Below, in pieces: positions 1-64,000 of a stretch of 64,000 nucleotides of DNA. Positions within the stretch are counted from its first letter, which is position 1, and every line of letters starts with the position of its first letter. The notes under the pieces were generated by a model. The model had not been told where the DNA came from. It was given only the letters and a program-made list of their open reading frames with translations, and made no database searches. The stretch is taken from IMG/VR virus record IMGVR_UViG_3300027518_000008, one strand, 5' to 3'. The translations under genes and the position numbers were made by a program. The stretch is from a virus.

Positions 1-918
1 AGCCAGCCTGCGCTGCAATTCTTTGCCGAGCTTGCCAATACTATCGGGACACGATACGAGGGTGAGGACGACAAGTTTGAGCGAATCCTGCAATTGCTGC
101 AAAAACAGGCTACCGAGGCAAGTCTAGTAATTGGCCAATCAGCAGCCACGCTTGGGGTAGCCCCGGTTGGGATTACAAACACCATTGAAAAGATAATGGA
201 AAATCCCATTAAGTCCAAGATGCCAGAAAACCAGTACGCCTATGCTGAGATTCCCGGGTTTCGGATGTCTTTGCGTGGTTCGTATGAGGCTATTGCTGAA
301 GCCAGAGCCAAGGCGTCCTACTTTACTGGCAGGGGTATCCGTGAGACTAATGACTGGTATGAGCCGGTCTACCGTGAGTTTGATGAGTGGTCTTCTGTGG
401 CCAATGCCTTGCCAATGCAGGTCAAGACTAAGCGGTATAACGCCATCAATGAGGAAATGATTAAGCTCAAGTCTGGGTTTCCGCCTATCAGCAAGTCCAT
501 GAACGAGCCCGGTATTAAACTAAACGATATTCAGTTTGACCGTTATAAAGAACTCATTAACTACCCAGAGCGTTCAGCCTTTGCCAAGGAATACTTTGGC
601 ATTTTCCTGCCCAAGCCAATCTTGGAGCAGATGGTTTCGACCATAGCCGACAAGGAAACCTACGACTTTTCTTATGACCCCAATACAGGCGTCCGTAGAC
701 CAGCCACACCCGGAGACAGAGCACGTGCGCTCCAAAACGTCCGGGCAGTATATTCATCGTATGCCAAAGACCTGATGCTCTTGGAGTTTCCCGAGCTCAA
801 AACCTTGGTTGATGAGCGTAAGGCGTTCGAGGACGCATTTGGTAAAGCCCCGCAAAAGCTGCCATTAACACCCGATACGCTAGAGAAAATCAAGCAAGCA
901 CCTTATAATCCACGTTAG
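1..918 (+). CDS. C-terminal part of a large internal virion protein (5' truncated)
   Basis: Frame open from base 1 to stop at 918; lies directly before the tail fibre, the position of T7-type internal virion proteins. Confidence 0.5.
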   Translation, partial: SQPALQFFAELANTIGTRYEGEDDKFERILQLLQKQATEASLVIGQSAATLGVAPVGITNTIEKIMENPIKSKMPENQYAYAEIPGFRMSLRGSYEAIAEARAKASYFTGRGIRETNDWYEPVYREFDEWSSVANALPMQVKTKRYNAINEEMIKLKSGFPPISKSMNEPGIKLNDIQFDRYKELINYPERSAFAKEYFGIFLPKPILEQMVSTIADKETYDFSYDPNTGVRRPATPGDRARALQNVRAVYSSYAKDLMLLEFPELKTLVDERKAFEDAFGKAPQKLPLTPDTLEKIKQAPYNPR

Positions 919-931
919 GAAGGAATAAGTC

Positions 932-2656
932 ATGTCTGTCCCAATTTCAAATGTTACCCGCCGGGTAGTGCTCGCCGCCTCTGGCACGGGGCCATATTCT
1001 TTTACCTTTGAAATCCTTGCCGCTACCGACATTTCGGTATACAGGGACGATACCCTTCTTACCCTGACTACTGACTATACCGTAACGATTAACACCAACG
1101 GTACTGGTTATGTAACCCTGACGGCTACACCTACCGGCGCTACCCAGATTGCCATTGTTGGCGACCGGGCAATCCAGCGTACCTCAGACTTCACAACTGG
1201 TGGCGACTTGTTCGCTACAACCCTGAACGATGAGCTAGACAGCCTTACCATCTTCGCCCAGCAAAATGCTGAGGCCGTAGACCGGGCTCTAAAAGCGCCT
1301 CAGACTGACCCAACAAACATCAGTATGACCCTGCCACGGGCGACCTCACGGGCAGGCAAGGTGCTGTCATTTGACTCCAACGGCAACCCTGCTGCGGTGG
1401 ACTACATCGGAACTAACCGTGGTAATTGGGCCTCTGGTACGGCTTACAACCAGCGTGACATTGCCAAGGATACGACCAACGATAACATCTATCAGGTTCT
1501 TACTCCGCACACATCTTCTGGTTCCCTGCCGCTTTCAAGCAATGCAGATATTGGCAAATGGGCATTACTGGTTGACGCAGCCGCAGCTAGCTCATCTGCC
1601 ACGGCCGCAGCTGCGAGCGCATCAGCAGCCTCAAGCTCTGCCTCTACCGCATCAACGCAGGCAACAAACGCAAGCAACTATGCGACTGCTGCCAGCACCT
1701 CGGCAAGCAATGCCTCGACTAGCGCATCTGCCGCCGCCGCAGACGCAGCTTCTGCTGCCTCGGCATTAGCTCAGACCTTGACTGCGTATGACAACTTCGA
1801 TGACCGCTACCTTGGGGCTAAGTCCTCTGATCCGTCCCTAGATAATGACGGCAATGCGCTGATAGCTGGGGCTCTGTACTTCAACACCGTCCTGCCGGGT
1901 ATGAAGGTCTACACCGGCTCGGCATGGGTGATTGCTTATGTGTCTGGTGGTGGGTTCTTATCAACGGCCAACAACCTGTCCGAACTGACGGCAACGGCTA
2001 GCACGGCCAGAACAAACATTGGCCTAGGTACTGGAGACAGCCCACAGTTTACAGCGGTCAACGTAGGCAACGCATCTGACACAACTGTCACCCGTGTTTC
2101 TGCTGGAGTGATTGCAGTCGAGGGCAGCAATGTCCTGATGGCATCTAACATTGGAACATCGGTTCAAGCCTATGATGCGCAACTGGCAGACATTGCTGGC
2201 CTAACCCCGACAGACAATGGAGTAGTCATTGGCAACGGTAGCAACTTTGTTGTTGAGTCTGGGGCCACGCTCAAGACTTCTCTTGGCCTGACAATTGGTA
2301 CTGACGTACAAGCCTATGACGCAGATACAGCCAAGACTGACGTAGCCCAAACATTTACAGCATCTCAACGTGGCACGGTTACGACTGACAATGACGGCTC
2401 CTTTGACCTGTCGGTGACAAACAACTTTGCTTGCACACCTACTGGTTCATTTACCCTGACATTTACCAATATGACCGCAGGACAGAGTGGATTCATTCTG
2501 CTGGTCAACGGTAGCAACTACACCGTGTCAGCTCACGCCAATACCAAGGTGGTGTCTGGATCGCTAACCACAATATCTGCAACCGGGACGTATTTGCTGT
2601 CGTACTGGACTAACGGTACGAATACCTATGTAGTCAACTCAGGAGCACTAGCTTGA
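932..2656 (+). CDS. Tail fibre protein, T7 gp17-type N-terminal anchor
   Basis: N-term YSFTFEILAATDISVY...TDYTV and DELDSLTIFAQQ typical of T7-like fibre anchors; Ala/Ser-rich linker; C-terminal domain shared with 38168-38929. Confidence 0.8.
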   Translation: MSVPISNVTRRVVLAASGTGPYSFTFEILAATDISVYRDDTLLTLTTDYTVTINTNGTGYVTLTATPTGATQIAIVGDRAIQRTSDFTTGGDLFATTLNDELDSLTIFAQQNAEAVDRALKAPQTDPTNISMTLPRATSRAGKVLSFDSNGNPAAVDYIGTNRGNWASGTAYNQRDIAKDTTNDNIYQVLTPHTSSGSLPLSSNADIGKWALLVDAAAASSSATAAAASASAASSSASTASTQATNASNYATAASTSASNASTSASAAAADAASAASALAQTLTAYDNFDDRYLGAKSSDPSLDNDGNALIAGALYFNTVLPGMKVYTGSAWVIAYVSGGGFLSTANNLSELTATASTARTNIGLGTGDSPQFTAVNVGNASDTTVTRVSAGVIAVEGSNVLMASNIGTSVQAYDAQLADIAGLTPTDNGVVIGNGSNFVVESGATLKTSLGLTIGTDVQAYDADTAKTDVAQTFTASQRGTVTTDNDGSFDLSVTNNFACTPTGSFTLTFTNMTAGQSGFILLVNGSNYTVSAHANTKVVSGSLTTISATGTYLLSYWTNGTNTYVVNSGALA

Positions 2657-5076
2657 GCGTCTTACCAGTAGGATTTGGTTCTGCGCTTGGCGGCTATCAG
2701 ATAGAGCGCAGTCTGCGGTTTAACTCTGCGGATAGTGCAAGATTAACTCGAACATTTGGAACGCCCACAAATCAAGAAAAATGGACTATGTCTATGTGGG
2801 TTAAAAGAAGTGGTTTGGGGATTAACACGGGGTTATTTGGCGCAGGAATCAGCGATTCAAATTTGGAAGTTTGGTTTGATACCAACAATAAATTATGTTT
2901 TAACGCCGCAACAAGCCCAGATAACAGGACAAAAATTACAACTCAGGTGTTTAGAGATTGTTCAGCTTGGTATCATTTAATTTGGGCATACGATACAAGC
3001 CTTCCATCTGATTCAAATAATAGCCCAACTGCTTTAAAAATTTATGTTAATAATTCTCTTATTACATCATTTTCCACTTTTGAATCTATTTCTTCTTATA
3101 CATTAGTTCCATTTAATTCAAATGGTGCTGTTGTAAATATCGGCAATCAAACTATAAGCAACTATTATTTCAGCGGCTATATGGCCGAGATTTATTTCAT
3201 TGACGGTCAAGCCCTAATACCATCCTCATTCGGCGAAACTGATTCTGCCACAGGTGTATGGAAGCCCAAGGCTTACTCTGGCACATACGGTACTAACGGC
3301 TTTTACCTCAACTTCTCAGACAACTCTGGCACGACATCCACAACGCTAGGCAAGGACAGTTCAGGCAATAGTAACAACTGGACACCTAACAACTTCTCGG
3401 TGACTGCGGGTGTTAACAATGACTCGCTAGTAGATTCACCTACGGCATACGGTACAGACACAGGCGTTGGTGGTGAGGTGCGTGGGAATTACTGTACTTG
3501 GAACCCTCTGGACAAACAAACAAGCGTCACCATAGCAAACGGGAACCTTGACGCAACCTATACTGGAACCACAGATGTCTATGGGTGTTTTTCCACTTTC
3601 TCAGTATCAAGTGGAAAATGGTATTGCGAGTTTACGGCAACTGGGCTTGGGGGTTCTGCTTATCCGCAGATTGGTATACGAAGAAGTAACAACTATGTTG
3701 CACAATATATTACAGAAACTTATGTAGACATAAAAGCTGGAACTTCTAATAATCGTGGTTCTGCTGGCCCAACATTTACGGCATTTATTGATAGTGATGT
3801 TTTGGGTATTGCGTTCAATGCTGATACTGGAGAGATATTCTTTTCCAAAAATGGTACTTGGTTAAATAGTGGAAACCCAGCCGCAGGAACGGGAGAATTC
3901 TTTTCTGGCTTAACTGATGGCCCATTTAAGTTTGGTATTGGTATGTACTCAAGCAGGACTGCCTTTGCCAACTTCGGTCAACGTGCCTTTGCCTACACAG
4001 CCCCCTCTGGCTTTAAGGCATTGTGTACAACTAATCTGCCTACGCCGACCATCGGTGCTACTAGCACTACACAGGCGAATGATTACTTTAATGCGGTAAC
4101 TTATACAGGTAATGGAACTAGCCTTAGCGTAACTGGTGTTGGCTTCCAGCCTGATTTAATCTGGATTAAAGACAGAAGCAATGCAAGGGCGCACGTTTTA
4201 CAAAATGCTATTGCTGGCTTTTCCCAATATCTACAATCTAATGCTACAGATGCAGAGACAACAGCATCTTCTGGCGTAACTGCGGTTGGGTCTGATGGAT
4301 TTACGGTTGGAACTCAGTTGGCATGGAATAGTAATACTGAAACCTATGTCGCATGGAACTGGAACGCTGGCGGCTCAACTGTAACCAACACTAGCGGCAC
4401 AATATCGGCACAGGTCAGGGCGAATACAACTAGCGGGTTCTCGATTGTTACTTATACGGGTAACGGAACAAACGGTGCAACTGTTGGTCATGGTCTTGGC
4501 ATTGCTCCATCTTTAATTTTTATCAAAAACCGTGGTGCAGTAGCATCTTGGCTTGTTTATAGCTCAAGCATTGGTGCGTCTAACTTTTTAGTTTTAAATA
4601 CCACAGATGCTTCTGCCGCTTCTGCGCTTCCTTTTAATAATACAGCGCCAACTTCGTCTGTATTTTCTTTGGGAACTTCTGGTGGTACAAATACAAATGG
4701 GGGAACTTTTGTAGCCTACTGCTTCGCACCAGTAGCGGGGTATAGCGCTTTTGGAAGTTACACGGGCAATGCAGCCGCTGACGGCCCATTTATCTACACG
4801 GGCTTTAGACCTAGGTTTGTTATTAGAAAATGCTCTAGCGCAACAAGCAACTGGTTTATAAATGATGCAGCAAGAAACCCTTCTAATGTTGTTTTATTAA
4901 GATTGAATGCTGACCTTTCTGATGCAGAAAGTTCTGGTGCTAATTCTGATATTGATTTTCTATCTAACGGATTCAAAATTAGAGCAACATCTACTGCGGG
5001 TGTAAATCAATCTGGACAAACACACATATATATGGCTTTTGCCGAGACTCCCGCAAAATTTTCGCTTGCCCGTTAG
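2653..5076 (+). CDS. ConA/LamG- and SPRY-like lectin-domain tail protein, copy 1
   Basis: SLRFNS...WTMSMWVKRS, WYHLIW, YFSGYMAEIYFIDG (LamG-like); GKWYCEF...GIAFNADTGEIFF (SPRY-like); overlaps fibre stop. Confidence 0.75.
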   Translation: MSVLPVGFGSALGGYQIERSLRFNSADSARLTRTFGTPTNQEKWTMSMWVKRSGLGINTGLFGAGISDSNLEVWFDTNNKLCFNAATSPDNRTKITTQVFRDCSAWYHLIWAYDTSLPSDSNNSPTALKIYVNNSLITSFSTFESISSYTLVPFNSNGAVVNIGNQTISNYYFSGYMAEIYFIDGQALIPSSFGETDSATGVWKPKAYSGTYGTNGFYLNFSDNSGTTSTTLGKDSSGNSNNWTPNNFSVTAGVNNDSLVDSPTAYGTDTGVGGEVRGNYCTWNPLDKQTSVTIANGNLDATYTGTTDVYGCFSTFSVSSGKWYCEFTATGLGGSAYPQIGIRRSNNYVAQYITETYVDIKAGTSNNRGSAGPTFTAFIDSDVLGIAFNADTGEIFFSKNGTWLNSGNPAAGTGEFFSGLTDGPFKFGIGMYSSRTAFANFGQRAFAYTAPSGFKALCTTNLPTPTIGATSTTQANDYFNAVTYTGNGTSLSVTGVGFQPDLIWIKDRSNARAHVLQNAIAGFSQYLQSNATDAETTASSGVTAVGSDGFTVGTQLAWNSNTETYVAWNWNAGGSTVTNTSGTISAQVRANTTSGFSIVTYTGNGTNGATVGHGLGIAPSLIFIKNRGAVASWLVYSSSIGASNFLVLNTTDASAASALPFNNTAPTSSVFSLGTSGGTNTNGGTFVAYCFAPVAGYSAFGSYTGNAAADGPFIYTGFRPRFVIRKCSSATSNWFINDAARNPSNVVLLRLNADLSDAESSGANSDIDFLSNGFKIRATSTAGVNQSGQTHIYMAFAETPAKFSLAR
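2689..3290 (+). repeat. 602-bp direct repeat, copy 1
   Basis: Starts GGCGGCTATCAG, ends CTGGCACATACGG; same text at 38962-39563 (offset 36273); two reading frames translate identically. Confidence 0.9.
3988..4097 (+). repeat. 110-bp direct repeat, copy 1
   Basis: TTTGCCTACACAGCC...TTTAATGCGGT also at 40279-40388. Confidence 0.85.
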
Positions 5077-5085
5077 GTAAACAAA

Positions 5086-5607
5086 ATGCCACAAGGAAGA
5101 TTCCATCAAGACCAAAGCGGGACAAAGATAAATATGCTAACTCTTTTGTTTCGAACCAATGAGCAATCTAAAAACGGAAGTTATAAATATATGACCCGTT
5201 GCGATTGCGGAACAGAAAAGATTGTTGCTTACAATCAAATGACCCGTGGTAGCACTAAGTCTTGTGGTTGCTTGCAATTCAGAAAAGGCGAAGATAGTCC
5301 GAACTTCAAACACGGTTTAGCGTTGAAATCGCACCCAGAATACAAGCGTTATCAGCGTGAGTGTTTTGACCGTCACCGCTATAACCTTGAGCCTCAACAC
5401 AAAGCCGCATTACTAGACGCACAAAACGGTGGTTGTGCTATCTGCGGGTACAAATTTGAGCAGAAAATAGGCGATATGAAAGTTGACCACAACCATTCAA
5501 CGGGCGAGGTCAGAGGTTTATTATGCGATTTATGCAATCGAGGGCTTGGTATGTTTAGGGACAATCAAGACAATCTGACCAAAGCAATATCTTATTTAGC
5601 GAGGTAA
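5086..5607 (+). CDS. Free-standing endonuclease VII-type HNH (homing) endonuclease
   Basis: CAICG...VDHNHSTGEVRGLLCDLCNRGLG; N-terminal CDCG...SCGC. Confidence 0.85.
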   Translation: MPQGRFHQDQSGTKINMLTLLFRTNEQSKNGSYKYMTRCDCGTEKIVAYNQMTRGSTKSCGCLQFRKGEDSPNFKHGLALKSHPEYKRYQRECFDRHRYNLEPQHKAALLDAQNGGCAICGYKFEQKIGDMKVDHNHSTGEVRGLLCDLCNRGLGMFRDNQDNLTKAISYLAR

Positions 5608-5610
5608 CAA

Positions 5611-6132
5611 ATGTTTCAACTCAATGGCAACCCAATCTCAATAGATTCTGAAGTAACCATCAATGGTATCCGCTACCCACACCTGCGTGACCCTGCTCTG
5701 CGTGAGCAACTAGGTATCGTAGAGGTAGCAGACCCAGAGCAGTATGACCAGCGTTTCTATTGGTCTCCTACATTGCCTAAGCTGCTTGATGACCGTGAAG
5801 AAGTAGACGAAGACGGTAATCCCATGTATGTCAAAGTCTTGGGTGTGGTCAACGGAGAACCTGCAATGGTTGACTCCACAGAGCGTCTGGTGACCAAAGG
5901 ACTCAAGAGCCAATGGACTTCTCAGGTTAAGCAGACTGCTGGTTCTATGCTTGCCCAAACTGACTGGATGGTAGTCCGCAAGGCAGAGCGCAATGTAGAC
6001 ATCCCCGCAACGGTGGTCGCAAAGCGTGCGGCGATTGTGGCTGAGTGCGACAGGCTAGAGGCTGCGATTGCGGCTTGCACGACTGTCGAGGCTCTGATTG
6101 CGGTAGTTGGCAACCAAGGATGGCCTGCATAA
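5611..6132 (+). CDS. Tail-fibre-associated (assembly/chaperone-like) protein, copy 1
   Basis: LAQTDWMVVR motif; follows fibre genes; close paralog at 42006-42527. Confidence 0.55.
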   Translation: MFQLNGNPISIDSEVTINGIRYPHLRDPALREQLGIVEVADPEQYDQRFYWSPTLPKLLDDREEVDEDGNPMYVKVLGVVNGEPAMVDSTERLVTKGLKSQWTSQVKQTAGSMLAQTDWMVVRKAERNVDIPATVVAKRAAIVAECDRLEAAIAACTTVEALIAVVGNQGWPA

Positions 6133-6293
6133 TGGCTACAATCGTAGAGGTCAAAGGCCAACTTGACACCCACGAAGCCGTCTGTGCCGAACGCTATCTT
6201 GGGATAAACGCTAGACTAAAGCGCCTAGAGCAAATCCTGATTGGCTCTGCTGGATTCATAATCGCCCTACTGCTAAGCCTAGTCGTTAAATGA
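6132..6293 (+). CDS. Small coiled-coil protein with C-terminal membrane anchor (53 aa), copy 1
   Basis: THEAVCAERY...RLKRLE then hydrophobic tail; paralog at 42527-42688. Confidence 0.7.
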   Translation: MATIVEVKGQLDTHEAVCAERYLGINARLKRLEQILIGSAGFIIALLLSLVVK

Positions 6294-6760
6294 CCACCAT
6301 CGCTGCCAGAGCGTCTACGGGAGAAATTGCCGCAGATTCGATGGTCAGCGGTGATGACTCCTTCTACCTCGTAGAGAAGCTCCGTAAGGGACAAGAGAGC
6401 ATCTACGGGGGTTGCGGAGATTGGGATAAACTATTAAAGTTCTACAATTCGTTGGAGTCTGGGGCAGACCTAGACTCGGATACGGATGTGACCGTTCTCG
6501 AACTCAGAAGTGATGGCATTTGGATTTACGAGAGTACCATCATTCCTGCGAAGATAAAGAACGACTTTTGGGCAATTGGAACTGGGGCAAACTTTGCTAT
6601 CGCTGCCATGCACTTAGGCTTAACTCCGGCAGAAGCAGTAAAGCTGGCGTGTCTGTACGACACATCCTCCCACGAGCCAATTGACGTAATGTCTCTAAGC
6701 GGGAGGAAGCGTGGTAGCACTAAAAAAGGTATCGGACGAGGAACTAATAGCGGCGTTTAA
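6290..6760 (+). CDS. Ntn-hydrolase (proteasome beta/HslV-like) peptidase, copy 1
   Basis: M-T-T-I-A start, IAADS, conserved Lys (EKL), AIGTG. Confidence 0.7.
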   Translation: MTTIAARASTGEIAADSMVSGDDSFYLVEKLRKGQESIYGGCGDWDKLLKFYNSLESGADLDSDTDVTVLELRSDGIWIYESTIIPAKIKNDFWAIGTGANFAIAAMHLGLTPAEAVKLACLYDTSSHEPIDVMSLSGRKRGSTKKGIGRGTNSGV

Positions 6761-7649
6761 GACCTACGGGAGTCCACAGAAGGTCTCTCAGGTTCTAGGC
6801 ATAGACGTAGGAACGGTTTACCGAAGGCGGTCGGCACTAAAAGACGTATCCCTGCCCTCCTTTGCCGCAAGACAGCACAGCATCGCCAACACATACATCC
6901 CCGATAACCGTAGGGTTATCTCCCACACCGTAGATAACGGTCATGTCTTTATAGCCTCGGACTGCCACTACTGGCCTGGCGAGGAAACCGTAGCACACAA
7001 GGCGTTTGTTTCCCTGCTGACAGAATTTAAGCCCAAGACCATCATCCTAAACGGGGATGTGTTTGACGGGGCTAGAATCAGCCGCCACGCCGCCCTCATG
7101 GGTACTAACCCCCCTACCCCAAAGCAAGAGATAGAAGCCTGCCAAGACCGTCTACACGAGATTGCAAACGCTTCTAAGAACGCTACTAAGCTTTTCACCT
7201 ACGGTAACCATGACGTAAGGTTGTTTAATTACATTGCAACCCACGCCCCAGAGTTATCTGAGTTCAGCGACTTGTTTTCGTACTTTCCAGGTTGGCATAC
7301 GGGGTGGCGGGTGGACATAAACAACTCTGTTGTGGTCAAGCATCGGTGGCACAACGGGCAACACGCGACATATAACAACGCCCTGAAGTCTGGCAGAAGT
7401 ATCGTCACAGGACACCTGCATAAACTGATGGTTACCCCGTGGACGGACTACAATGGGCGCAGATACGGTGTAGACACAGGAACGCTTGCGGAGCCAGGTG
7501 GCGACCAATTTGTGTATGTAGAAGAAAACCCCGTGAACTGGTGTTCTGGGTTCTGCGTTCTGACATTTAAGAATGGTATGTTATTACCACCAGAGTTATG
7601 CGAAGTAATAAACGGCGTGGCTTACTTTCGAGGAGAGAAAGTGGGATAA
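6711..7649 (+). CDS. Calcineurin-like metallophosphoesterase with N-terminal HTH-like segment, copy 1
   Basis: SDCH, NGDVFD, GNHD, GHLH motifs. Confidence 0.85.
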   Translation: MVALKKVSDEELIAAFKTYGSPQKVSQVLGIDVGTVYRRRSALKDVSLPSFAARQHSIANTYIPDNRRVISHTVDNGHVFIASDCHYWPGEETVAHKAFVSLLTEFKPKTIILNGDVFDGARISRHAALMGTNPPTPKQEIEACQDRLHEIANASKNATKLFTYGNHDVRLFNYIATHAPELSEFSDLFSYFPGWHTGWRVDINNSVVVKHRWHNGQHATYNNALKSGRSIVTGHLHKLMVTPWTDYNGRRYGVDTGTLAEPGGDQFVYVEENPVNWCSGFCVLTFKNGMLLPPELCEVINGVAYFRGEKVG

Positions 7650-8099
7650 ATGAGTGATTTAGTAGCCTCGGCAAAGAGTGCCGCGCAGGGAATAAAAAGC
7701 GCGATAGCCGCAGGGAAAGAGATTGAAGCAGTAGTCAACGATATTCAAAAACTTGGGGTCGCAGAACTCCAAGCCAAGCAACAGTTCCAAAAAAAGCAAC
7801 GGGTAGTTAAGGGCGATACCACCATCCTCACAGCCTTTGCGGAGTGGCGCAGACTTAAAGAAATCAAGGAAGCCGAGGACGACTTATTCCAGCAGCTTGT
7901 TGAGCGTTACGGCAAGGACAAGGCTGAGTTTGAGTGGAAGGACATCCAAGCCATCAAAGAGCGCCAGATAAAGGAAGTCAAGGACGGGCGTGACGAGATG
8001 GGGCGTGACCTAAAGAAACTCCGAGAACTCAAGGTTATGTGCTTCATAGCCTCGCTAATCATAGTCACCACTTACTACATCTTCAAAGGACACCTGTAA
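7650..8099 (+). CDS. Coiled-coil protein with C-terminal TM segment, copy 1
   Basis: ORF; near-identical paralog at 44049-44498. Confidence 0.7.
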   Translation: MSDLVASAKSAAQGIKSAIAAGKEIEAVVNDIQKLGVAELQAKQQFQKKQRVVKGDTTILTAFAEWRRLKEIKEAEDDLFQQLVERYGKDKAEFEWKDIQAIKERQIKEVKDGRDEMGRDLKKLRELKVMCFIASLIIVTTYYIFKGHL

Positions 8100-8602
8100 T
8101 GCTATCCCTAATATCTTCCGCTATTGGCTTTTTTGCCTCTGGTCTACCTCAAGTACTAAATTTCTTCCAAGACAAGGCTGACAAGGCGCAAGAGTTGAAG
8201 TTAGCGCAGATGCAGACCGAGCGCGAGTTAGCCCTTGCAGAACGCGGTTTCCTAGCCCAACAAAGGGTCGAGGAGATTAGGACTGACCAGATTGCCCTTC
8301 AGACCGACGCAGACCGCCAGAACGCCGCTTTAGACCACGACAAGGCTATCATGGCTCGCGCCTCTAGTTGGGTCGTGAACTTGAACGGCATAGTTCGCCC
8401 TGCGGTCACCTTTATCTTTGTCTTAGAGTTGGTGCTAATTAACATGGGGCTGACTTACTTCTTGCTAAAGGGCGGTCTTGGAGACATGAGCGTGGAGCAG
8501 TTTATCGCCGCCACAGACGTAATCTTCTCCGAAGACGAGATGGCCCTGCTCTCTGGGATTATTGCTTTCTGGTTCGGGAGCCGCCAATGGGGTAAGAAGT
8601 GA
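8099..8602 (+). CDS. Putative holin (multi-TM), copy 1
   Basis: Hydrophobic segments, VRPAVT and FWFGSR motifs, directly before lysozyme; start moved to ATG overlapping previous stop. Confidence 0.65.
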   Translation: MLSLISSAIGFFASGLPQVLNFFQDKADKAQELKLAQMQTERELALAERGFLAQQRVEEIRTDQIALQTDADRQNAALDHDKAIMARASSWVVNLNGIVRPAVTFIFVLELVLINMGLTYFLLKGGLGDMSVEQFIAATDVIFSEDEMALLSGIIAFWFGSRQWGKK

Positions 8603-9078
8603 AAGTCAGCAAGGAAGCAATAGAGGGGATTAAGAAAGACGAGGGGGTAAGGACAAAACCTTACCGCTGCCCAGCCCTGCTGTGGACTGTTGGGGTTGGA
8701 CACGTTATCGACCAGAACCACATAAGGGTAAAGTTTGATGACCGCAAAAATCTACCAATTCCCGACGGATGGGACAGAGTTCTTAGCATGGCAGAAGTTG
8801 ATGCTATCTTGGCTCAGGACTTGGCTACATTCGAACGAGGTGTTCTGCGCCTCTGTCCAGGTGGACTTACTCAAGGCCGCTTTGACGCTCTGGTTTCCTT
8901 CTCCTTCAACGTCGGGCTTGGCAACCTCCAAAGGTCAACCATCCGCATGAAGCACAATCGTGGAGACTTTGAGGGCGCGGCAGAGTCCTTCATGGCGTGG
9001 ACTAAAGCGGGCGGGAAAGAACTGCCTGGCTTAGTTAAACGTCGGAAGCACGAACGCGCTCTCTATGAATCTGAGTAA
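8599..9078 (+). CDS. Endolysin, GH24 lysozyme, copy 1
   Basis: EG...YRCPA..WTVGVGH, FDALVSFSFNVG, GLVKRR..E. Confidence 0.92.
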   Translation: MKVSKEAIEGIKKDEGVRTKPYRCPALLWTVGVGHVIDQNHIRVKFDDRKNLPIPDGWDRVLSMAEVDAILAQDLATFERGVLRLCPGGLTQGRFDALVSFSFNVGLGNLQRSTIRMKHNRGDFEGAAESFMAWTKAGGKELPGLVKRRKHERALYESE

Positions 9079-9376
9079 TTCTTTCCTTTAGTTCCTCGGC
9101 TATTGTCAAATTGTGCTTGGCCTCAAACTGGTCAAGCCACTTCCTCCTCGCCTCCCTTGTTGGGAGCGTCAACACATACCTTGCCAGCCCTTCTATCTTC
9201 GCCTCATGTTCGCTCATCACGATTTGATAGAACTCCTCTTTGGTGGCGGTAAAGGTTCCTCTGTTAACCAGCCCTAGCAAATGTTTTATGCAACGCTTTT
9301 CTGGCGGTGGTGACGGCTCTGATTGCGTCAGATTTTCGAACAAATCTCCCAAGATAATACCTCTTATAGTTGGCAC
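9035..9376 (-). CDS. Hypothetical protein (true start uncertain, probably shorter)
   Basis: ORF converging on lysozyme; 5' part overlaps the HNH gene. Confidence 0.45.
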   Translation of the reverse strand: MPTIRGIILGDLFENLTQSEPSPPPEKRCIKHLLGLVNRGTFTATKEEFYQIVMSEHEAKIEGLARYVLTLPTREARRKWLDQFEAKHNLTIAEELKERITQIHRERVRASDV

Positions 9377-9725
9377 AAACGTGTGCCTCGTAAAACTTTT
9401 CCTTCCTCTTGTAGACCCCTTTCACATTAGACTTGGTTTTCTCCCGCAACTTGGAGTTCCACCTGTTTTCCATCTGCGTGGCAACTCTGAGATTGCTTAG
9501 TCTATTGTCGGCAAACTTGCAGTTCTTGTGGTCAACGGTCTCAGGCCACCACCCGTGGTGATAAGCCCAGATAATCCTGTGAGCAAAGTAAGGCTTTTTG
9601 AATATAGCAATTTTGCGATAACCGCGAGGGGTTATGTGTCCTGCGATTGTGTTGGCGTACCTAGCGTTCCACATGACATACGCGGAATACTTGGCGAAAG
9701 CCTCAATGGGTCGAGGCTTCCACAC
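9264..9725 (-). CDS. HNH homing endonuclease with AP2-like C-terminal domain
   Basis: AHRIIW...VDHKN...DNRLSNLR; KGVY...YLGRF. Confidence 0.85.
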   Translation of the reverse strand: MWKPRPIEAFAKYSAYVMWNARYANTIAGHITPRGYRKIAIFKKPYFAHRIIWAYHHGWWPETVDHKNCKFADNRLSNLRVATQMENRWNSKLREKTKSNVKGVYKRKEKFYEAHVCANYKRYYLGRFVRKSDAIRAVTTARKALHKTFARAG

Positions 9726-9772
9726 AAGTTCCCCTTTCCTGTAAACAAACAGGGCGCGTAGCTGTTGCTTGC

Positions 9773-10000
9773 TTAGAATGGAATGTCGTCCTCTAAGGCT
9801 TGTTGCTTTGGCTCTGCCTTGGGCTTGGGTAGTTCAACCTTGAGACTCATAAACTTCTGCCCAGACTTGCCTGTTTTAATCCATGCGGCTAGGTTGTACT
9901 CAGTCCCGTCTACGTTTAACTTGCCCTTGTAGGCAGGAGCCTTCTCGTTGTCCGACTCGTTCTTAAACAACACACCGCTATTGGTATTATCGTATTCCAT
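9773..10000 (-). CDS. Small ssDNA-binding-like protein
   Basis: GVLFKN...PAYKGK...AAW, acidic DDIPF tail; analogue at 53957-54256. Confidence 0.6.
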   Translation of the reverse strand: MEYDNTNSGVLFKNESDNEKAPAYKGKLNVDGTEYNLAAWIKTGKSGQKFMSLKVELPKPKAEPKQQALEDDIPF

Positions 10001-11182: not shown

Positions 11183-11519
11183 TGAGCCTCCTTTTGGCTA
11201 TGTGTAGTTCTGCCTCTAACTTATCCGTACTCATCCGCAACCTTTGGGCTACATTGTGGCTCAAGTTATACGGGTACTGGATATATCTTGCCTTCAAAAC
11301 CCTGCGCGATATATCAGGTAATTCCCTAACCGCGTCCTCCACCATCTGCCCGTCAATCATGTCGGGTTCTATTCTCGGTTCTTCTCCTTCAAAGACATCC
11401 TCGGACTCGTAGTTGCCCTCTGCGCTCGCACATTGGGTACGGTGTTCTGGGCCAACATGACCCCAAGCACAATAAAACGCCCAGTTCCGAAGACGGTCTT
11501 CGCTAATCATATTGTGCAT
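11100..11519 (-). CDS. Antiterminator Q-like / late transcription regulator
   Basis: RLRNWA N-term, V..AV..LP...R.VL..RY and C-terminal HTH-like segment. Confidence 0.5.
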   Translation of the reverse strand: MHNMISEDRLRNWAFYCAWGHVGPEHRTQCASAEGNYESEDVFEGEEPRIEPDMIDGQMVEDAVRELPDISRRVLKARYIQYPYNLSHNVAQRLRMSTDKLEAELHIAKRRLNDRLQRNSPGHRGMATSEVGVCNGQQG

Positions 11520-11995
11520 CCAGCGTGGTATTTCCTTTTTGCAACTAGATACGCTTGATGAGCCAAGTCTGGAGTTTCAAAATAACCTAATTTTTTAACT
11601 TTCCCCAAAATCCTAATTTGAGAAATCCATTTGCTAGATTTTTTATGTTTGGTTACTCCCAAAAACCCAGATGTATTTCTAGCTGTCGGTTTTCTTAAGT
11701 TTTCTAAATTTTGTCTCCTAGAAACAGACCTTAAGTTACACAGTCTATTGTCAGTTTTTATTCCATTTATGTGGTCAATATCTTCTGTGGGCCATTCTCC
11801 ATAAACATAAAACCAAACAAGCCTGTGCGCTCGATATGTTTTACCCAAAACCCTTATGTCAATGTACCCGTGCTTGCTGTTTACAGTTCCGGCATGAAGA
11901 TTTCTTTGGCGAACCTTCCTAACAAACAACCCCGTTTCTGGGTTGTAATCCATGAGTTTTATAAGTTCTGTTTGGTCTAATTTTTTTTGAACCAT
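11507..11995 (-). CDS. HNH homing endonuclease with AP2-like domain
   Basis: AHRLVW...IDHINGIKTDNRLCNLR; SGFLGV...LGYF. Confidence 0.88.
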   Translation of the reverse strand: MVQKKLDQTELIKLMDYNPETGLFVRKVRQRNLHAGTVNSKHGYIDIRVLGKTYRAHRLVWFYVYGEWPTEDIDHINGIKTDNRLCNLRSVSRRQNLENLRKPTARNTSGFLGVTKHKKSSKWISQIRILGKVKKLGYFETPDLAHQAYLVAKRKYHAGCTI

Positions 11996-12657: not shown

Positions 12658-12953
12658 TTATTCCCTACCGGTAAAGTTTTGCCCAAAAGACGGTACACAT
12701 CCTCTAATAATTCCTGCTCGGTAAATCCGTAGTGCTTTGGGAAGCCTTTGGTTCCGAGTCCGTGGATTCCTTCATCTCCACGATGATGTCGAGGGCAGAG
12801 GGGGATGACGAAATAATTACTCGGTCTACCCCACCCTTGTCCACTCCGAATATGGTGTAACTCAGCAGGCGTGCCCTCATGGCCCAATCTGCGACAGACA
12901 GCGCATCCCAATTCTGCAACCGCAGACATATGCTTCTTTTCATCTTTGGTCAT
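12654..12953 (-). CDS. Ref-like (recombination enhancement) HNH-fold protein
   Basis: LGCAVC...ELHH...IPLCPRHHRG...GIH; start at ATG overlapping the methyltransferase stop. Confidence 0.7.
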   Translation of the reverse strand: MTKDEKKHMSAVAELGCAVCRRLGHEGTPAELHHIRSGQGWGRPSNYFVIPLCPRHHRGDEGIHGLGTKGFPKHYGFTEQELLEDVYRLLGKTLPVGNK

Positions 12954-14359
12954 ATCCTCTCTACCGCCTGAATTCTTTCCCCAATCCACCGCATCACGGG
13001 AACCGCCATGCTATTGCCCAATGCCTTGTACCTTGGCCCATCAGGGCAGTTCTCACGGATGTTGGTGTAGTTGTCAGGGAACCCTTGTAGACGTTCGCAC
13101 TCTACTGGTGTCAGGCGGCGAACTGCCATCTTTTGCATGACAGCCATAACACCATCTGCATTTCCACCAGTTCTAATAGTTGGAGACAAATTTTTTGTTG
13201 CATCCCTACCATTATCAATTCTTGAAAAAGCAATCGGTTGCGCCACTCCATGTATGTCTGCTTTGGTTAGCGTATACATAACACCATCATCTGATGCGCC
13301 AACTCCTTGCGGGCCACCAGAATCCCTTCCAATTAGGTTTCCTTGAATAGCAACAACCGCAGACCCGCAAGCATTTTCTTTGGCTAGGGTATGACAAGGG
13401 TCTCCTACTTTGCGACTTAACTGATGGTTTTCTTTAGAAGTCACTTGTTTTAAGTCGTATGGAATAACCTGAACTAGATTTCCCTCTCTCCCCTCTGCAT
13501 TGCAACTAAGAGTTGTAGCAACTTCTGATGGCTTTATCCGACTATCTTGGTTGTGCCACTCATAGGTTAATGAAGCAGGAACAAACATTGGAGCTCCCTC
13601 ATTTATGTGTTGGTTTTCTAAACCAAGTTTTGAGCCAAAGTTTGCATTTAATGTTGAGCAGATTTCTGCCGGCCAGGTTACAAAGGTTTCGCTTCCTCCG
13701 GCTAAGACTCCTCCGCTTGCTTTGAGGGTTCCTCCAATTTTGTCTGGGCGATATTGAGCAAGGCTACTTTCAGCGTATGCGGTAATTCCTTTTCCCTTTT
13801 CTCTGCTCGGCGCAGGATTCCCGCACAAGCTGTCGCGCTCAAAAAGTACCGCTGCGGCATTTCTCCAGTTTCCAAGACATCCGACAACAAACACACGTCT
13901 GCGTCGCTGGGCCACTCCGAAGTACTGAGCGTCAAGAACTCTGTAGGCGAACCCATACCCGAGTTCTGCCAACATTCCAAGGAAGGTTCCAAAGTCCCTT
14001 CCTCCGTTGCTCGACAAGACACCGGGGACATTCTCCCAAACCAACCACTTGGGCTTAAATCGTTTAGCAATTGCACCGTAGGTAAGCATGAGGTTGCCAC
14101 GCGGGTCATCCAATCCTTTTCGCAGACCTGCAACTGAGAATGATTGGCAAGGTGTTCCTCCGACCAAAAGTTCAACTGACTCAAGATTCCACTCCTCAAA
14201 TTTAGTCATATCCCCCACATTGGGAACAGATGGGTAATGATGTTTTAAAACTTGGCCAGGAAACTTTTCAATTTCCGAAAATGCCACAGGCTCCCAACCC
14301 ATGTGATGCCAAGCAACCGTTGCGGCTTCGATGCCAGAACAAACAGATAGGTATCTCAT
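12950..14359 (-). CDS. DNA (cytosine-5) methyltransferase
   Basis: LSVCSGIEAA (I), GGTPCQSFS (IV), ENVPG (VI), QRRRRVFVVG (VIII), RRLTPVECERLQGFP (IX), GNSMAV (X). Confidence 0.93.
   Translation of the reverse strand: MRYLSVCSGIEAATVAWHHMGWEPVAFSEIEKFPGQVLKHHYPSVPNVGDMTKFEEWNLESVELLVGGTPCQSFSVAGLRKGLDDPRGNLMLTYGAIAKRFKPKWLVWENVPGVLSSNGGRDFGTFLGMLAELGYGFAYRVLDAQYFGVAQRRRRVFVVGCLGNWRNAAAVLFERDSLCGNPAPSREKGKGITAYAESSLAQYRPDKIGGTLKASGGVLAGGSETFVTWPAEICSTLNANFGSKLGLENQHINEGAPMFVPASLTYEWHNQDSRIKPSEVATTLSCNAEGREGNLVQVIPYDLKQVTSKENHQLSRKVGDPCHTLAKENACGSAVVAIQGNLIGRDSGGPQGVGASDDGVMYTLTKADIHGVAQPIAFSRIDNGRDATKNLSPTIRTGGNADGVMAVMQKMAVRRLTPVECERLQGFPDNYTNIRENCPDGPRYKALGNSMAVPVMRWIGERIQAVERI
13702..14199 (-). 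CDS. Out-of-frame nested ORF, M.EcoHK31I beta-polypeptide-like
   Basis: WQNSGM...SEWPS...LSDVLET...YFLS..AC.GILRRA, recalled as the nested beta-subunit pattern; same strand, alternative frame; start uncertain. Confidence 0.65.
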   Translation of the reverse strand: MRSGILSQLNFWSEEHLANHSQLQVCEKDWMTRVATSCLPTVQLLNDLSPSGWFGRMSPVSCRATEEGTLEPSLECWQNSGMGSPTEFLTLSTSEWPSDADVCLLSDVLETGEMPQRYFLSATACAGILRRAEKREKELPHTLKVALLNIAQTKLEEPSKQAEES

Positions 14360-14463
14360 TGTTCGTTTTTGATTCGTAACCAAACCAAGACTTCTTCCCA
14401 GCTCAACGGGGTTTCCAAAAAGTCAGGTTCCCGTAGTCCAAACAACGAATAATCTATCTTCAT
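14356..14463 (-). CDS. Hypothetical protein (35 aa)
   Basis: Hand translation; overlaps ninB stop and methyltransferase start. Confidence 0.45.
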   Translation of the reverse strand: MKIDYSLFGLREPDFLETPLSWEEVLVWLRIKNEQ

Positions 14464-18390: not shown

Positions 18391-18442
18391 CATTGTCGGT
18401 GGAGTAGTGCGCCTCCTCCTCAGCCTACTCCTTCAAGCCCTC

Positions 18443-18476: not shown

Positions 18477-18491
18477 TATAAGGTGATAACC

Positions 18492-41996: not shown

Positions 41997-42005
41997 GAGT
42001 AACAA

Positions 42006-44047: not shown

Positions 44048-44048
44048 C

Positions 44049-46338: not shown

Positions 46339-46340
46339 AG

Positions 46341-47410: not shown

Positions 47411-47426
47411 CTGCTGAGCCACGTTG

Positions 47427-48110: not shown

Positions 48111-48221
48111 GACTTAATCTCCTGAAACGGTAGTTAAGATTTATCGAGAGCTCAATGTACCACAACTGTATTGCTCAATGCAATCTCGATGATATAATGG
48201 ATTACCCTTATAGGAGATGGT

Positions 48222-48413
48222 ATGCAACCGCTGCGAAAGTACAACACATTCATAGTCCGGCTTCGACCGTACACCCGAGAGCTGCTAGACCGGGCCGCCG
48301 AAGACCAACGCCGCAGTCGGGCCAGCCTTGTAGATGAGGCCATCATAGCCTTCTTACAGCCCCGCTATTCGGATGTTACAACCCGGCTGGACAAACTGCT
48401 GGGGCCGAAGTGA
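48222..48413 (+). CDS. Ribbon-helix-helix (Arc-like) regulator
   Basis: FIVRL...ELLDRAAE..RRSRASLVDEAI; divergent from recombinase. Confidence 0.7.
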   Translation: MQPLRKYNTFIVRLRPYTRELLDRAAEDQRRSRASLVDEAIIAFLQPRYSDVTTRLDKLLGPK

Positions 48414-48799
48414 AAGGCCGTGGAAGGCGTCAAAAGGGCGCCCGTGGGGAGAACGAACTAGCCCAGCTACTAACTGACCAGCTTGGCTTTGTGGTCAAGC
48501 GCAAGCTAGGGCAGGCCCGGGATGGTGGGGATGACATACAGGTAGGCAAGTATAAGATTGAAGTTAAGAGACATGAGCGCCTATCGGTGATGGACTGGGT
48601 GCGTCAGGTAGAGGCAACCTGCGGGTTAGGGGAAGTACCTATTGTGGTATTCCGCCAGAACGGTCAACCTTGGCGTGCGGTTGTACCGCTAGATACTTTG
48701 GTGTTTGCAATTAGGGAATCAATAGATGTCAATAACGAACAAAAATCTCAAGAGCATGACTCAGGTAGTGGAGTCGATAACGGGCAAGCGGTGGTGTAG
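48410..48799 (+). CDS. Holliday junction resolvase-like PD-(D/E)XK nuclease
   Basis: KG..GE.E, GGDDI, IEVKR. Confidence 0.75.
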   Translation: MKGRGRRQKGARGENELAQLLTDQLGFVVKRKLGQARDGGDDIQVGKYKIEVKRHERLSVMDWVRQVEATCGLGEVPIVVFRQNGQPWRAVVPLDTLVFAIRESIDVNNEQKSQEHDSGSGVDNGQAVV

Positions 48800-48914
48800 C
48801 AATTGTCAGCACAGCCAAGTGGCGAAGGGGGGTGTATGGAAGGTGACAAACAACAACCAGAGGCAAAGGTGGATATGCCAGTTGTGTGTAACAAAAAAAC
48901 AAGGCATTGTGTAG
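48726..48914 (+). CDS. Small zinc-finger protein
   Basis: WCSNC...WICQLC. Confidence 0.55.
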   Translation: MSITNKNLKSMTQVVESITGKRWCSNCQHSQVAKGGVWKVTNNNQRQRWICQLCVTKKQGIV

Positions 48915-48989
48915 AGTGTTACCACAGCTCTGGGCCTTACACGTTTTTGTGGTGCGGGTTTTACGACAAGCCAACATCGGGTAAGACTT

Positions 48990-49334
48990 GTGATTCATTC
49001 CAACGATATGCAATCAAACTCCCCAAGTGGGAATAAGGAGAATAGAGATGAAAGACTGGTCTGTTTTGCGTGCAATCAAATCCATACTGGGGCTAGACTC
49101 ATCACCACGGAAGATGGCCGAACCCTTGGCAATTATTCCGCAGAGTATTTCCTCTACGGCGAAGCCTGTTGGGTCTTCAAAAAGAAGAAGACCAAGAACA
49201 CTAGGCGCCAGTACCTCGAGCAAATCAGGGAAATCCGTGGGCAAGAAGCCTACCTCAAGCTCCACGAAGAAATGATGCGGATATGGACTGCTCGAAATGC
49301 GAAGCTCCAACAGAAGCAGGAATCACAAAAGTAA
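48990..49334 (+). CDS. Hypothetical protein
   Basis: CFAC..IH; start uncertain. Confidence 0.5.
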   Translation: MIHSNDMQSNSPSGNKENRDERLVCFACNQIHTGARLITTEDGRTLGNYSAEYFLYGEACWVFKKKKTKNTRRQYLEQIREIRGQEAYLKLHEEMMRIWTARNAKLQQKQESQK

Positions 49335-49427
49335 TCAAAACTACCCCGCTACTTGTCTCGACCTATCGGATATGCACTAAGTGCGGGTTTACATTTTGGG
49401 CTTACGAATTAAAAGAAGGGGAAGACG

Positions 49428-49643
49428 ATGAAGGCAAAGCTGATATTCAACCTACCAGATGACCAGTATGAGTACGATTGTGCGGTGCAGGGGGTGAAGT
49501 TTAAGCACGCACTTGAGGCGCTATCTAGTGCCTTTAGGAATGAGATGAAGTACACCGGAACCCATGATGCAGAGCACTTCATGGATATATTCTGGGAGAC
49601 TCTGAACGACCACGACGTAAGGTTACACCATGACAGACCGTGA
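49428..49643 (+). CDS. Hypothetical protein
   Basis: GGGGAAG RBS; MKAKLIFNLPDD. Confidence 0.6.
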   Translation: MKAKLIFNLPDDQYEYDCAVQGVKFKHALEALSSAFRNEMKYTGTHDAEHFMDIFWETLNDHDVRLHHDRP

Positions 49644-49875
49644 ACTAATAGAACAATGGCTTAGACCGGGAGCGATTATTCCTGTCAACAACAATGCCAT
49701 TCGTGTCCTTTTAGAAGCCCTGCGTGACCGACTAGCGCAGCCTGAATGGGTTGGGCTGACGGATGATGAAATCTATGACTATGCAGACAAGTTTCTTTAT
49801 CAGCATGGCAGTAATTTTGGAATCAAGTCATTTGGTAAAGCCATAGAAGCCAAACTAAAGGAGAAGAACACATGA
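49630..49875 (+). CDS. Hypothetical protein
   Basis: WVGLTDDEI motif typical of phage accessory ORFs. Confidence 0.55.
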   Translation: MTDRELIEQWLRPGAIIPVNNNAIRVLLEALRDRLAQPEWVGLTDDEIYDYADKFLYQHGSNFGIKSFGKAIEAKLKEKNT

Positions 49876-50528
49876 TTGACATTGTGGTTGGCTTTGACCA
49901 GCGGGAAGCGGTGGCCTACCATACGTTTTGCCAGTCGGTGATCGACAATTGCAGCGAACCGGTGCGATTCACCCCGTTGGTGGCCAATAATGTAGAACGG
50001 AAAGGAGGGTCAAATGACTTCATCTATTCAAGGTTTCTCGTACCGCATCTCATGGGCTACCGTGGTTGGGCCATCTTCGCAGACGGGGACATGGTCTGCC
50101 GTGAAGATATTGCCCGACTCTGGGAAATGCGTGACGATAGATACGCAGTCCAAGTCGTCCAACACGACTACCAGACCAAGCACCCCCGCAAGTATCTTGG
50201 AAATAAGAACGAGAATTACCCCAGAAAAAACTGGTCAAGCCTGATTCTTTGGAACTGCGCCCATATTGCTAACCGCTGCTTGGACAAGCAGACCATTGAT
50301 GCGGTAGAGGGTTCGTTCCTGCATCGGTTTGGCTGGCTTAACGAGTCTGAGATTGGCGAGTTGCCGCTTACTTGGAACTGGCTGGCAATGGAGTACCCGG
50401 GCAATGACAACGCCCAGATTGTGCATTACACCATTGGCACACCTTGCTTTGGAGCATATCAAAATTGCGATATGTCTGAGTATTGGTGGCTGTCTTACAA
50501 ACGAATGAATCAGGGGGTGGACGATTGA
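49872..50528 (+). CDS. Glycosyltransferase, GT8-like
   Basis: FADGDM (DxD), YPRKNWSS..LWN, WNWL, HYT.G.P. Confidence 0.78.
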   Translation: MIDIVVGFDQREAVAYHTFCQSVIDNCSEPVRFTPLVANNVERKGGSNDFIYSRFLVPHLMGYRGWAIFADGDMVCREDIARLWEMRDDRYAVQVVQHDYQTKHPRKYLGNKNENYPRKNWSSLILWNCAHIANRCLDKQTIDAVEGSFLHRFGWLNESEIGELPLTWNWLAMEYPGNDNAQIVHYTIGTPCFGAYQNCDMSEYWWLSYKRMNQGVDD

Positions 50529-62943: not shown

Positions 62944-63581
62944 TTACGGTTGCTTGCGTTCTAAAGTCTGGCGGCAGATACAAGCCGGATGACGTGGCAA
63001 AGCTGAGTCGGAATGTAGCTCAAAAAATAAGCCTGCCCCATAACTTTGTATGCCTTTCTGACATTCCAGTACCGTGCGAGCGTATTGCTTTGCAACATGA
63101 CTGGTCTGGGTGGTGGTCAAAGATTGAGCTATTTAGACCGGGAGTGCTACCGCCCAATACCATCTACCTTGACCTTGATACCGTTGTACTGGATGATTTT
63201 TTGGACATTGCCGAGTGCGGGTACGATTTTGCGATGATGCAAAACCTCAATCGTCCACACATGGTTTCGTCAGCCCTTATGTGGTTCTATCACAAAGCTC
63301 CCGTTGAAGTCTATAAAAGATTTGTGGTAAACCCAGATTATTGGGTAAAATATCACCAAGATAACAAGGACGGCCCATATTTGGGCGATCAGGCGTTTAT
63401 CTGGGATGCGTTAGATAGAAACGTGCCGGTATTAGAAACCAAGAAATACGGAGTCTATTCATACCGCCTACACGTAAAAGACCGAGGCAAACCGCCTGAC
63501 GGGTGTAGGATTGTTGCTTTTGGTGGGCAATATAAACCAAACAACGTTGACGCCGAGTGGCTACGTGCCATTCGAGGATAG
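62940..63581 (+). CDS. Glycosyltransferase, GT-A-like
   Basis: CVLKSGG.Y, GWWSKIELF, YLDLDTV, SS.LMW, GDQ.FI. Confidence 0.72.
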   Translation: MITVACVLKSGGRYKPDDVAKLSRNVAQKISLPHNFVCLSDIPVPCERIALQHDWSGWWSKIELFRPGVLPPNTIYLDLDTVVLDDFLDIAECGYDFAMMQNLNRPHMVSSALMWFYHKAPVEVYKRFVVNPDYWVKYHQDNKDGPYLGDQAFIWDALDRNVPVLETKKYGVYSYRLHVKDRGKPPDGCRIVAFGGQYKPNNVDAEWLRAIRG

Positions 63582-63589
63582 GATAGATT

Positions 63590-64000
63590 ATGGCTGCCGG
63601 TGATTCTGCTCTCTCAATATGTTCTGACGCCTTGCAAATGTTAGGCGCCAAGCCAATCTCGTCCTTTACAGAAGGAACGGATGAGGCAAACGTTGCCGAC
63701 TCCCTGTACCAAGATATCAAAAAGCAAGCCCTTTTGGTCTATCCTTGGTCGTTTGTGTATAAAAAGATTGCATTAGCCAGACTGCTAGTAGGGCCAACGA
63801 CTGAGTACACCTACGCCTATCAGTTACCCGGCGACCGTATTGGCCCACCACGTTCTGTAACCGTTAGCGCAACACCCGGGTCGGGAACCATCCGTAACTA
63901 CCGGATATTTGGCGACCAACTTCTAACTAACGAAACCAGCATTTACATAGACTATCCTTATGACGTACAAGAGTACGAGATGCCGGTGTATTTTGTCCAG
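63590..64000 (+). CDS. Tail tubular protein A (T7 gp11-like), 3' truncated
   Basis: ICSDAL..LG..PISSF.EGTD.A...LY...YPWSF...Y.YAYQLP. Confidence 0.8.
   Translation, partial: MAAGDSALSICSDALQMLGAKPISSFTEGTDEANVADSLYQDIKKQALLVYPWSFVYKKIALARLLVGPTTEYTYAYQLPGDRIGPPRSVTVSATPGSGTIRNYRIFGDQLLTNETSIYIDYPYDVQEYEMPVYFVQ

Follow-up and report, generated by a model that had tools for sequence, protein, structure and literature searches.

Two phages in one window

The 64,000-nucleotide stretch catalogued as IMG/VR record IMGVR_UViG_3300027518_000008 (positions 1-64000; hereafter, the window) derives from a subsurface metagenome and contains DNA of two unrelated, podovirus-size phages from one groundwater or freshwater community, here termed phage B (2689-38961) and phage A (everything else in the window). 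Both genomes are depleted of short palindromic words, each according to its own profile: GATC is absent from phage B and CGCG is absent from phage A, and a receptor-binding gene cassette carried by both phages lacks the two words together. Three sequencing runs of the source (X1-X3) contain both A and B.

Phage B is a complete genome of 36,273 bases, collinear with B-type IMG/VR genomes of 35-37 kb; two B-type genomes (G002 and G003) are complete, with terminal repeats present. Phage A, a podovirus of the MEP301 type, amounts to ~34.8 kb, composed of 38962-64000, ~7.1 kb located outside the window, and 1-2688, with the A-type contigs G006 and G007 linking position 64000 to position 1 via ~7.1 kb of A-type DNA. 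When compared to itself by BLAST, the window has only two homologous stretches, offset by ~36.3 kb. The first (2384-3509 versus 38657-39782) contains an exact repeat in which the measured identity run covers 602 bases (2689-3290 and 38962-39563), and the second (5604-9056 versus 41999-45455) is 74% identical. Such perfect identity over 602 bases within DNA that is otherwise ~74% identical shows a recent exchange between A and B, as an earlier note on this DNA, written from the letters alone, had proposed. The two copies could be assigned using relatives: B-type relatives match 5600-9976 at 84-89%, versus 71-80% for the other copy, and the A-type contig G007 matches the lysis module at 42520-49633 at 87%, versus 74% for the copy at 6125-9059.

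All features described below are on the plus strand unless stated otherwise. The window begins with the right end of phage A (1-2688), which carries tail genes including a fibre anchor (932-2656), matches the A-type contigs G006 and G007 at 97% and 89%, respectively, and is CGCG-free with two GATC sites. The first copy of the 602-base tract (2689-3290) lies in the N-terminal part of a gene encoding a lectin/SPRY-like receptor-binding protein and opens the receptor-binding cassette of phage B (2689-7363), which comprises genes for the receptor-binding protein (2653-5076), endonuclease VII (5086-5607), an open reading frame (ORF; 5611-6132), an HslV-like peptidase (6290-6760), and most of a metallophosphoesterase (6711-7649). 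This cassette contains no GATC and no CGCG, with observed/expected counts of 1/12 for CCGG and 7/20 for AGCT. The B backbone (7364-38961) carries lysis, recombination (Sak-like annealase, NinB), terminase, large portal, scaffold, head, and tail genes, HNH endonucleases, and a minus-strand C5 cytosine DNA methyltransferase of 477 amino acids (12950-14383; PF00145, E = 3e-58); AGCT, GGCC, CCGG, and ACGT show a 2-3.5-fold depletion in this backbone. The second copy of the tract (38962-39563) likewise opens the A cassette (38962-43765), with genes for the receptor-binding protein (38926-41364), endonuclease VII (41364-41996), an ORF (42006-42527), a peptidase, and the start of a phosphoesterase (43025-44047); it has neither GATC nor CGCG and, in contrast to the remainder of A, contains little AGCT and ACGT. 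The endonuclease VII/HNH genes following the receptor-binding gene occupy the same position in the two phages and are different genes (173 amino acids in B, 210 in A). The A backbone (43766-64000) encodes lysis proteins, a RecE-like exonuclease, a small serine recombinase, RusA, an O-like replication initiator, terminase, a glycosyltransferase, and a portal and a major head protein that are both T7-like. It has no CGCG, no GGWCC, one CCWGG, and 11 GATC sites, with AGCT, GGCC, and CCGG at normal levels. In the portions of phage A that were read, neither an RNA polymerase nor a DNA polymerase was detected.

The closest cultured relative of A is Methylophilales phage MEP301 (75% portal identity), and that of B is Methylophilales phage Venkman (54%). 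According to its description (PMC8024684), MEP301 has a genome of 34,774 bp, close to the size of A, with a resolvase-domain protein, a glycosyltransferase, and no polymerases; A, too, has a glycosyltransferase gene and one for a small protein with a resolvase domain, and its lectin/SPRY receptor-binding protein is 42% identical to that of MEP301. In contrast, the G+C content is 50% in A and 40% in MEP301, and MEP301 is marine while A is from groundwater or freshwater; site avoidance is not described in the consulted passages of the MEP301 paper (PMC8024684). Megablast searches of both window halves against cultured phage records returned nothing beyond one 39-base match, and an exact search of IMG/VR with 53 bases of the 602-base tract returned no match.

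The connection between the two genomes was assessed using Logan contigs of X1-X3 placed on positions 30001-50000. At the 602-base repeat such contigs look alike for a cointegrate and for two free genomes, and the informative measure was contig depth, albeit a coarse one. In X1, the B contig had a depth of 67.1, the A contigs one of 39.5-43, and the tract contig one of 95.2, which is approximately the sum of A and B, and the A:B depth ratio differs among the three runs; such unequal and summing depths suggest that A and B are separately abundant. In each of the three runs, the left flank of A (window 2659-2688) is present on loose ends located at 38962. The join in the window is probably an assembly path through the 602-base repeat, that is, through a figure-eight graph. 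Alternatively, B could be nested in A as a real ~71 kb cointegrate generated by homologous recombination in the 602-base tract, in which case the window would represent one molecule with two compositional histories. The insert is indeed exactly one B genome in length and is flanked on both sides by direct repeats of the tract, as Campbell-type recombination would give, and contigs from X1-X3 connect the A left side to the tract. However, the equal abundance of A and B expected of a single cointegrate was not indicated by contig depth, a suggestive result; free A-type (G007) and B-type (G002 and G003) genomes exist; and a de Bruijn graph with a common 602-base repeat yields the same path regardless, making the cointegrate an unlikely explanation. 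The earlier note had described the window as split by palindrome avoidance: there are two genomes with different profiles, but mainly because separately abundant genomes are joined at a repeat, probably by the assembler.

A separate observation concerns positions 49839-49881 of phage A, where a conserved sequence of ~37-43 bases consists of the ribosome-binding site and the beginning of the gene at 49872. Matches were found in phage DSL-LC04 (97%) and in several short contigs binned as a Rhodoferax metagenome-assembled genome (91-97%), and in the source runs many different sequences continue after position 49875, which is thus a hot spot. This element looks like a module-boundary sequence common to phages, at which recombination swaps the downstream gene.

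Palindrome depletion beyond composition and codon usage

GATC occurs 13 times in the window (1829, 2559, 43904, 45109, 46932, 49940, 50808, 51254, 51661, 56563, 58751, 61829, and 63387), leaving 2560-43903 free of this word. Eleven of these positions had been listed correctly by manual reading in the earlier note, which missed those at 2559 and 46932 and gave the free span as 1833-43903. Its statement that CGCG is confined to 7364-38917 was exact, as the first and the last of the 104 sites in the window are located at 7364 and 38917. Both words are absent from 2560-7363 and 38918-43903. Compared to a trinucleotide-based Markov model, the observed/expected counts in the A backbone (here 1-2688 plus 43904-64000) are 13/78 for GATC and 0/53 for CGCG, those in the B backbone (7364-38917) are 0/87 and 103/135, and each of the two zones without both words (2689-7363 and 38918-43903) has 0/13-14 and 0/11-12. 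The depletion is therefore far beyond chance. The 602-base tract contains neither word, as had been claimed, but with ~1.5 sites of each expected this absence is trivial on its own and becomes significant only over the whole ~4.7 kb cassette. The avoidance had also been called reciprocal. While the complete absence of CGCG from A and of GATC from B was confirmed, GATC is lost from both genomes, completely in B and with a ~6-fold depletion in A, and the pattern is thus not reciprocal.

The deficits do not follow from base composition or coding constraints. The CG and GC dinucleotides and the word GCGC have ordinary counts throughout, indicating that the depletion is not CpG loss. Synonymous-codon shuffles, which left all protein sequences and the genome-specific codon usage intact, predicted 62.9 +/- 6.0 GATC and 51.6 +/- 6.2 CGCG sites for A, versus 10 and 0 observed, and 72.3 +/- 7.3 GATC and 103.6 CGCG sites for B, versus 0 and 85. 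GGWCC was absent from both genomes (29 expected in A and 39 in B), and CCWGG was found once in A (42 expected) and 30 times in B (57.5 expected). The remaining words tested were AGCT (109 observed versus 91.3 expected in A; 29 versus 119 in B), GGCC (86 versus 107.0; 47 versus 108), CCGG (70 versus 79.4; 56 versus 98), and ACGT (81 versus 80.4; 61 versus 106). Some expectations are method dependent, ranging from 22 to 45 for CCWGG in the A backbone, where one site is seen, and from 30 to 60 for GGWCC in the B backbone, where none is seen. Since the deficits remain in the shuffles, codon usage does not explain the depletion, contrary to a possibility that the earlier note had itself raised; with the Markov expectations and the ordinary CG and GCGC counts added, both codon usage and CpG loss were rejected as causes.

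A scan of all 4-6-mers and degenerate 5-mers was used to define the avoidance profiles, and the most under-represented 4-6-mers proved to be nearly all palindromes. Words avoided in both A and B include GATC, GGWCC, CASTG, AGCGCT, CAGCTG, CCATGG, CTGCAG, GATATC, GCCGGC, TCTAGA, and TGCGCA. Phage A additionally avoids CGCG, CCWGG, and AAGCTT, and the additional words of phage B are AGCT, GGCC, CCGG, and ACGT, which are partially avoided (2-4-fold depleted), as well as GGCGCC, AACGTT, GCTAGC, CCGCGG, and GCGCGC. Nine palindromes are avoided by A and B alike, and palindrome observed/expected values correlate between the two genomes (rho 0.56, p = 1.5e-4), a correlation that provides weak support for a common core. 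Several of the avoided words are recognition sites of known Type II enzymes: GATC of MboI/DpnII, CGCG of BstUI/FnuDII, GGWCC of AvaII/SinI, CCWGG of EcoRII/BstNI, AGCT of AluI, GGCC of HaeIII, and CCGG of HpaII.

The contrast can be followed gene by gene in 3.46 kb of homologous DNA that is 74.5% identical between the A and B copies. The B copy has 8 CGCG, 0 GATC, 5 AGCT, 5 GGCC, 1 CCGG, and 5 CCWGG sites, versus 0, 2, 20, 17, 11, and 0, respectively, in the A copy. Single bases distinguish the aligned sites: where B has CGCG, A has CGTG, CGCA, or AGCG, and where A has GATC, B has GACC; at aligned positions of homologous genes, sites were removed by synonymous or conservative changes, leaving the proteins unaltered. 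The paralogous codon pairs that had been cited as examples (8220/44618 and ~7503/43904) were found to be correct.

Lineage profiles and the discordant receptor-binding cassette

To place these profiles in context, 160 related loci, as well as complete genomes, on independent IMG/VR contigs were tallied. Among B-type loci with portal identity of at least 85% (n = 51), GATC is zero in 45, and CGCG is missing from none of the 51 and is present at near-expected density; GGWCC is zero in 38 of the 46 that could be tested, and most of these loci are 2-5-fold poor in AGCT and GGCC. All five A-type loci with at least 95% identity lack both CGCG and CCWGG and have few GATC sites, and GGWCC is zero in all three that were testable. 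Likewise, CGCG is zero over 19 and 32 kb in G006 and G007. Different profiles appear among other relatives. For instance, three more distant ones (L032, L054, and L056) have 0-1 AGCT sites with normal GATC, and another (L058) has no CGCG, compared to 42 expected. GGCC and CCGG are not avoided in the B-type genome G001, GGWCC is the sole avoided word in many A-type relatives, and ACGT is zero or near zero, with GATC and CGCG normal, in G421 (L102; 2/49) and eight other distant A-type loci. The avoidance profile is thus passed on within each phage lineage and varies from one lineage to another. Because it changes among relatives with equal gene content, it appears to reflect a changing external pressure, such as mobile host restriction systems, rather than a fixed property of the phage type. 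As a separate observation, GGWCC is zero in many members of both families (L088-L092 and L125-L147 for A; L047-L068 for B), even where nothing else is avoided, at a G+C content of 50-62%, which hints at a near-universal GGWCC-specific restriction system in the host group.

The receptor-binding cassette departs from the backbone on which it resides. In phage B, the CGCG-free gap over the cassette spans 4675 nucleotides (2689-7363), where 11 sites would be expected (P ~1.6e-4 at the site density of B), and in three further B-type genomes (G002, G003, and G004) the longest CGCG-free gaps, of 3.1-3.7 kb, are also located on the receptor-binding region (P 0.0015-0.008). The receptor-binding region of the A-type contig G007 has no AGCT and no ACGT for 3.4 kb (P ~2e-4), with ~4 sites per kb in its backbone, and AGCT and ACGT are similarly scarcer in the A cassette of the window than in the A backbone. 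In G420, the receptor-binding gene has ACGT at 7/8 and a single GATC, compared to 7/46 for ACGT and 0/117 for GATC in the backbone, and it lacks CGCG although the G420 backbone contains this word. The cassettes are more AT-rich, with a G+C content of 44-45%. In addition, one contig of run X1 connects the tract at 38965 to yet another left flank, a third one that the window does not contain, indicating at least three genomic contexts of the receptor-binding tract in one sample. Together, the identical tract, the third flank, and the discordant profile suggest cassette exchange among co-occurring phages. We tentatively propose, as a possibility somewhat short of an even bet, that the receptor-binding cassette is a common-pool module that shuttles among unrelated podovirus backbones of one host community and keeps its own "pan-avoidant" profile. 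If so, avoidance footprints would record the backbone and host regimes through which a module has passed.

Restriction as the likely selective agent

The profiles are likely the outcome of classical restriction-site avoidance, in which a common core would result from overlapping hosts and the extra words of each phage from different exposure to strain-specific restriction systems. Short palindromes serving as Type II targets have been purged from each genome, mostly via synonymous single-base changes. Overlapping host populations would fit both the common avoided core and the 602-base identical receptor-binding tract, and the A and B lineages may each have propagated in their own range of host strains, with differing mobile restriction-modification systems. 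A mobile receptor-binding cassette would keep its own palindrome-poor profile and thereby appear CGCG-free in B-types and AGCT/ACGT-free in A-types. We infer both restriction enzymes as the selective agent and different host-strain exposure as the cause of the difference between A and B. The suggestion of different restriction-modification pressure in the earlier note is a reasonable one.

Avoidance of this kind has classical precedents in T7, with its few GATC and CCWGG sites, and in Bacillus phages lacking GGCC. More generally, avoidance and its bias to orthodox Type II sites have been documented for ~4000 viral genomes (Rusinov et al. 2018, PMC6286503). The present case resembles known avoidance in double-stranded DNA phages (PMC6286503) in the near-complete loss of 4-6-base orthodox Type II palindromes, which is synonymous, lineage-specific, and independent of composition. 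It differs in that two unrelated phages of one sample share an identical tract and can be compared gene by gene, and in that the cassette is discordant with the backbone. The phenomenon itself is known and involves no new mechanism; this side-by-side contrast and the cassette discordance are its only fresh elements.

Several points weigh against restriction-site avoidance under different host exposure. No host was found in the genome-contig scan or among 401 Burkholderiales genomes, and hence no cognate restriction enzyme was matched. Searching genome contigs with the A portal returned only phage-size contigs mis-binned into unrelated metagenome-assembled genomes (Polynucleobacter, Actinomycetes, Opitutae, Nitrosopumilus, and others), and a 20-kb B query against the 401 Burkholderiales genomes returned weak methyltransferase-core matches only, with no spacer and no prophage. 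The receptor-binding protein gives no pointer either, since its relatives (37-42% identical) belong to phages of hosts as diverse as Pelagibacter, Synechococcus, Roseobacter, and Methylophilales. Because the 602-base tract was exchanged recently, A and B must encounter each other within single cells, which is slightly awkward for different pressures. The correlation of palindrome values between A and B is not above that of B with its own distant relatives (0.46-0.73), and part of the shared core may be generic palindrome avoidance. In the case of the cassette, expected counts within single receptor-binding genes are small. Finally, the C5 methyltransferase of this B is missing from its relatives and might protect CGCG in the host of A.

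The last point raises the possibility of one host and two solutions, namely that the host restricts CGCG, A has dispensed with the sites, and this B methylates its 104 sites with a recently acquired C5 enzyme. The core of the enzyme resembles M.HhaI and M.HaeIII, and its conserved motifs are separated by a long variable region. Its gene is an insertion, as it is absent from G001-G003 and the locus in G003 shows a 4-base gap, suggesting a recent gain; this B and phage A also have the 602-base identical tract in common and are found together in X1-X3, and this B may have gained the methyltransferase on entering the host of A. Phage-encoded C5 methyltransferases, often multispecific, serve as self-protection in the Bacillus phages SPbeta, phi3T, and rho11s, and the 477-amino-acid enzyme of B with its long variable region is of similar appearance. 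Unlike in those phages, however, close relatives of B without the enzyme hold CGCG at equal density, and B avoids many cytosine-containing palindromes. CGCG is near its expected density in all 51 close B-type loci, and its retention does not track the methyltransferase among G001-G003, which have 104-113 CGCG sites each without the C5 enzyme. In the complete genome G002, for instance, methyltransferases of the C5, N6/N4, and D12 types are all missing, yet CGCG occurs 113 times, indicating that CGCG retention in the B lineage predates the enzyme and does not need it. Furthermore, no other avoided word is relaxed in B compared to relatives without the methyltransferase, and neither solved structures nor homologue names, which are generic, gave an indication of the enzyme target. 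Protection of this B by its own methyltransferase in a shared host is therefore considered improbable as the source of the contrast.

Two HNH endonuclease genes of the same family, phrog_99 (9264-9725 and 11507-11995, minus strand), are located near the inserted methyltransferase in the leftward operon of B and may be homing-type mobile genes accompanying the insertion. Upstream of the terminase, B encodes a 588-amino-acid protein with a PBECR5 nuclease domain (20168-21934), and the same locus in G001 (18129-18707) and G003 (4543-5121) has an ORF of ~400 amino acids with an N6/N4 methyltransferase domain.

That the depletion simply results from base composition, codon usage, or a mutation bias such as CpG loss is highly improbable. 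Although the AT-richer cassette somewhat lowers expectations for GC-rich words, A combines ordinary CG and GCGC with zero CGCG, Markov and protein- and codon-preserving models still predict 50-120 sites compared to the 0-30 observed, nearly every depleted word is a palindrome, and homologous genes of A and B differ in exactly the words that each phage avoids.

With restriction-site avoidance thus the likely explanation, the window provides a natural side-by-side comparison, in which different restriction targets have been purged from unrelated phages whose lysis and receptor-binding genes are homologous. A lineage hands down its avoidance profile, yet between lineages the profile changes quickly, and a mobile cassette can differ in this respect from the backbone that carries it. 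In work on uncultured freshwater phages, avoidance profiles could flag contigs that join two genomes at a shared repeat, and could be of use in guessing which restriction systems the hosts possess and in tracing the exchange of modules.

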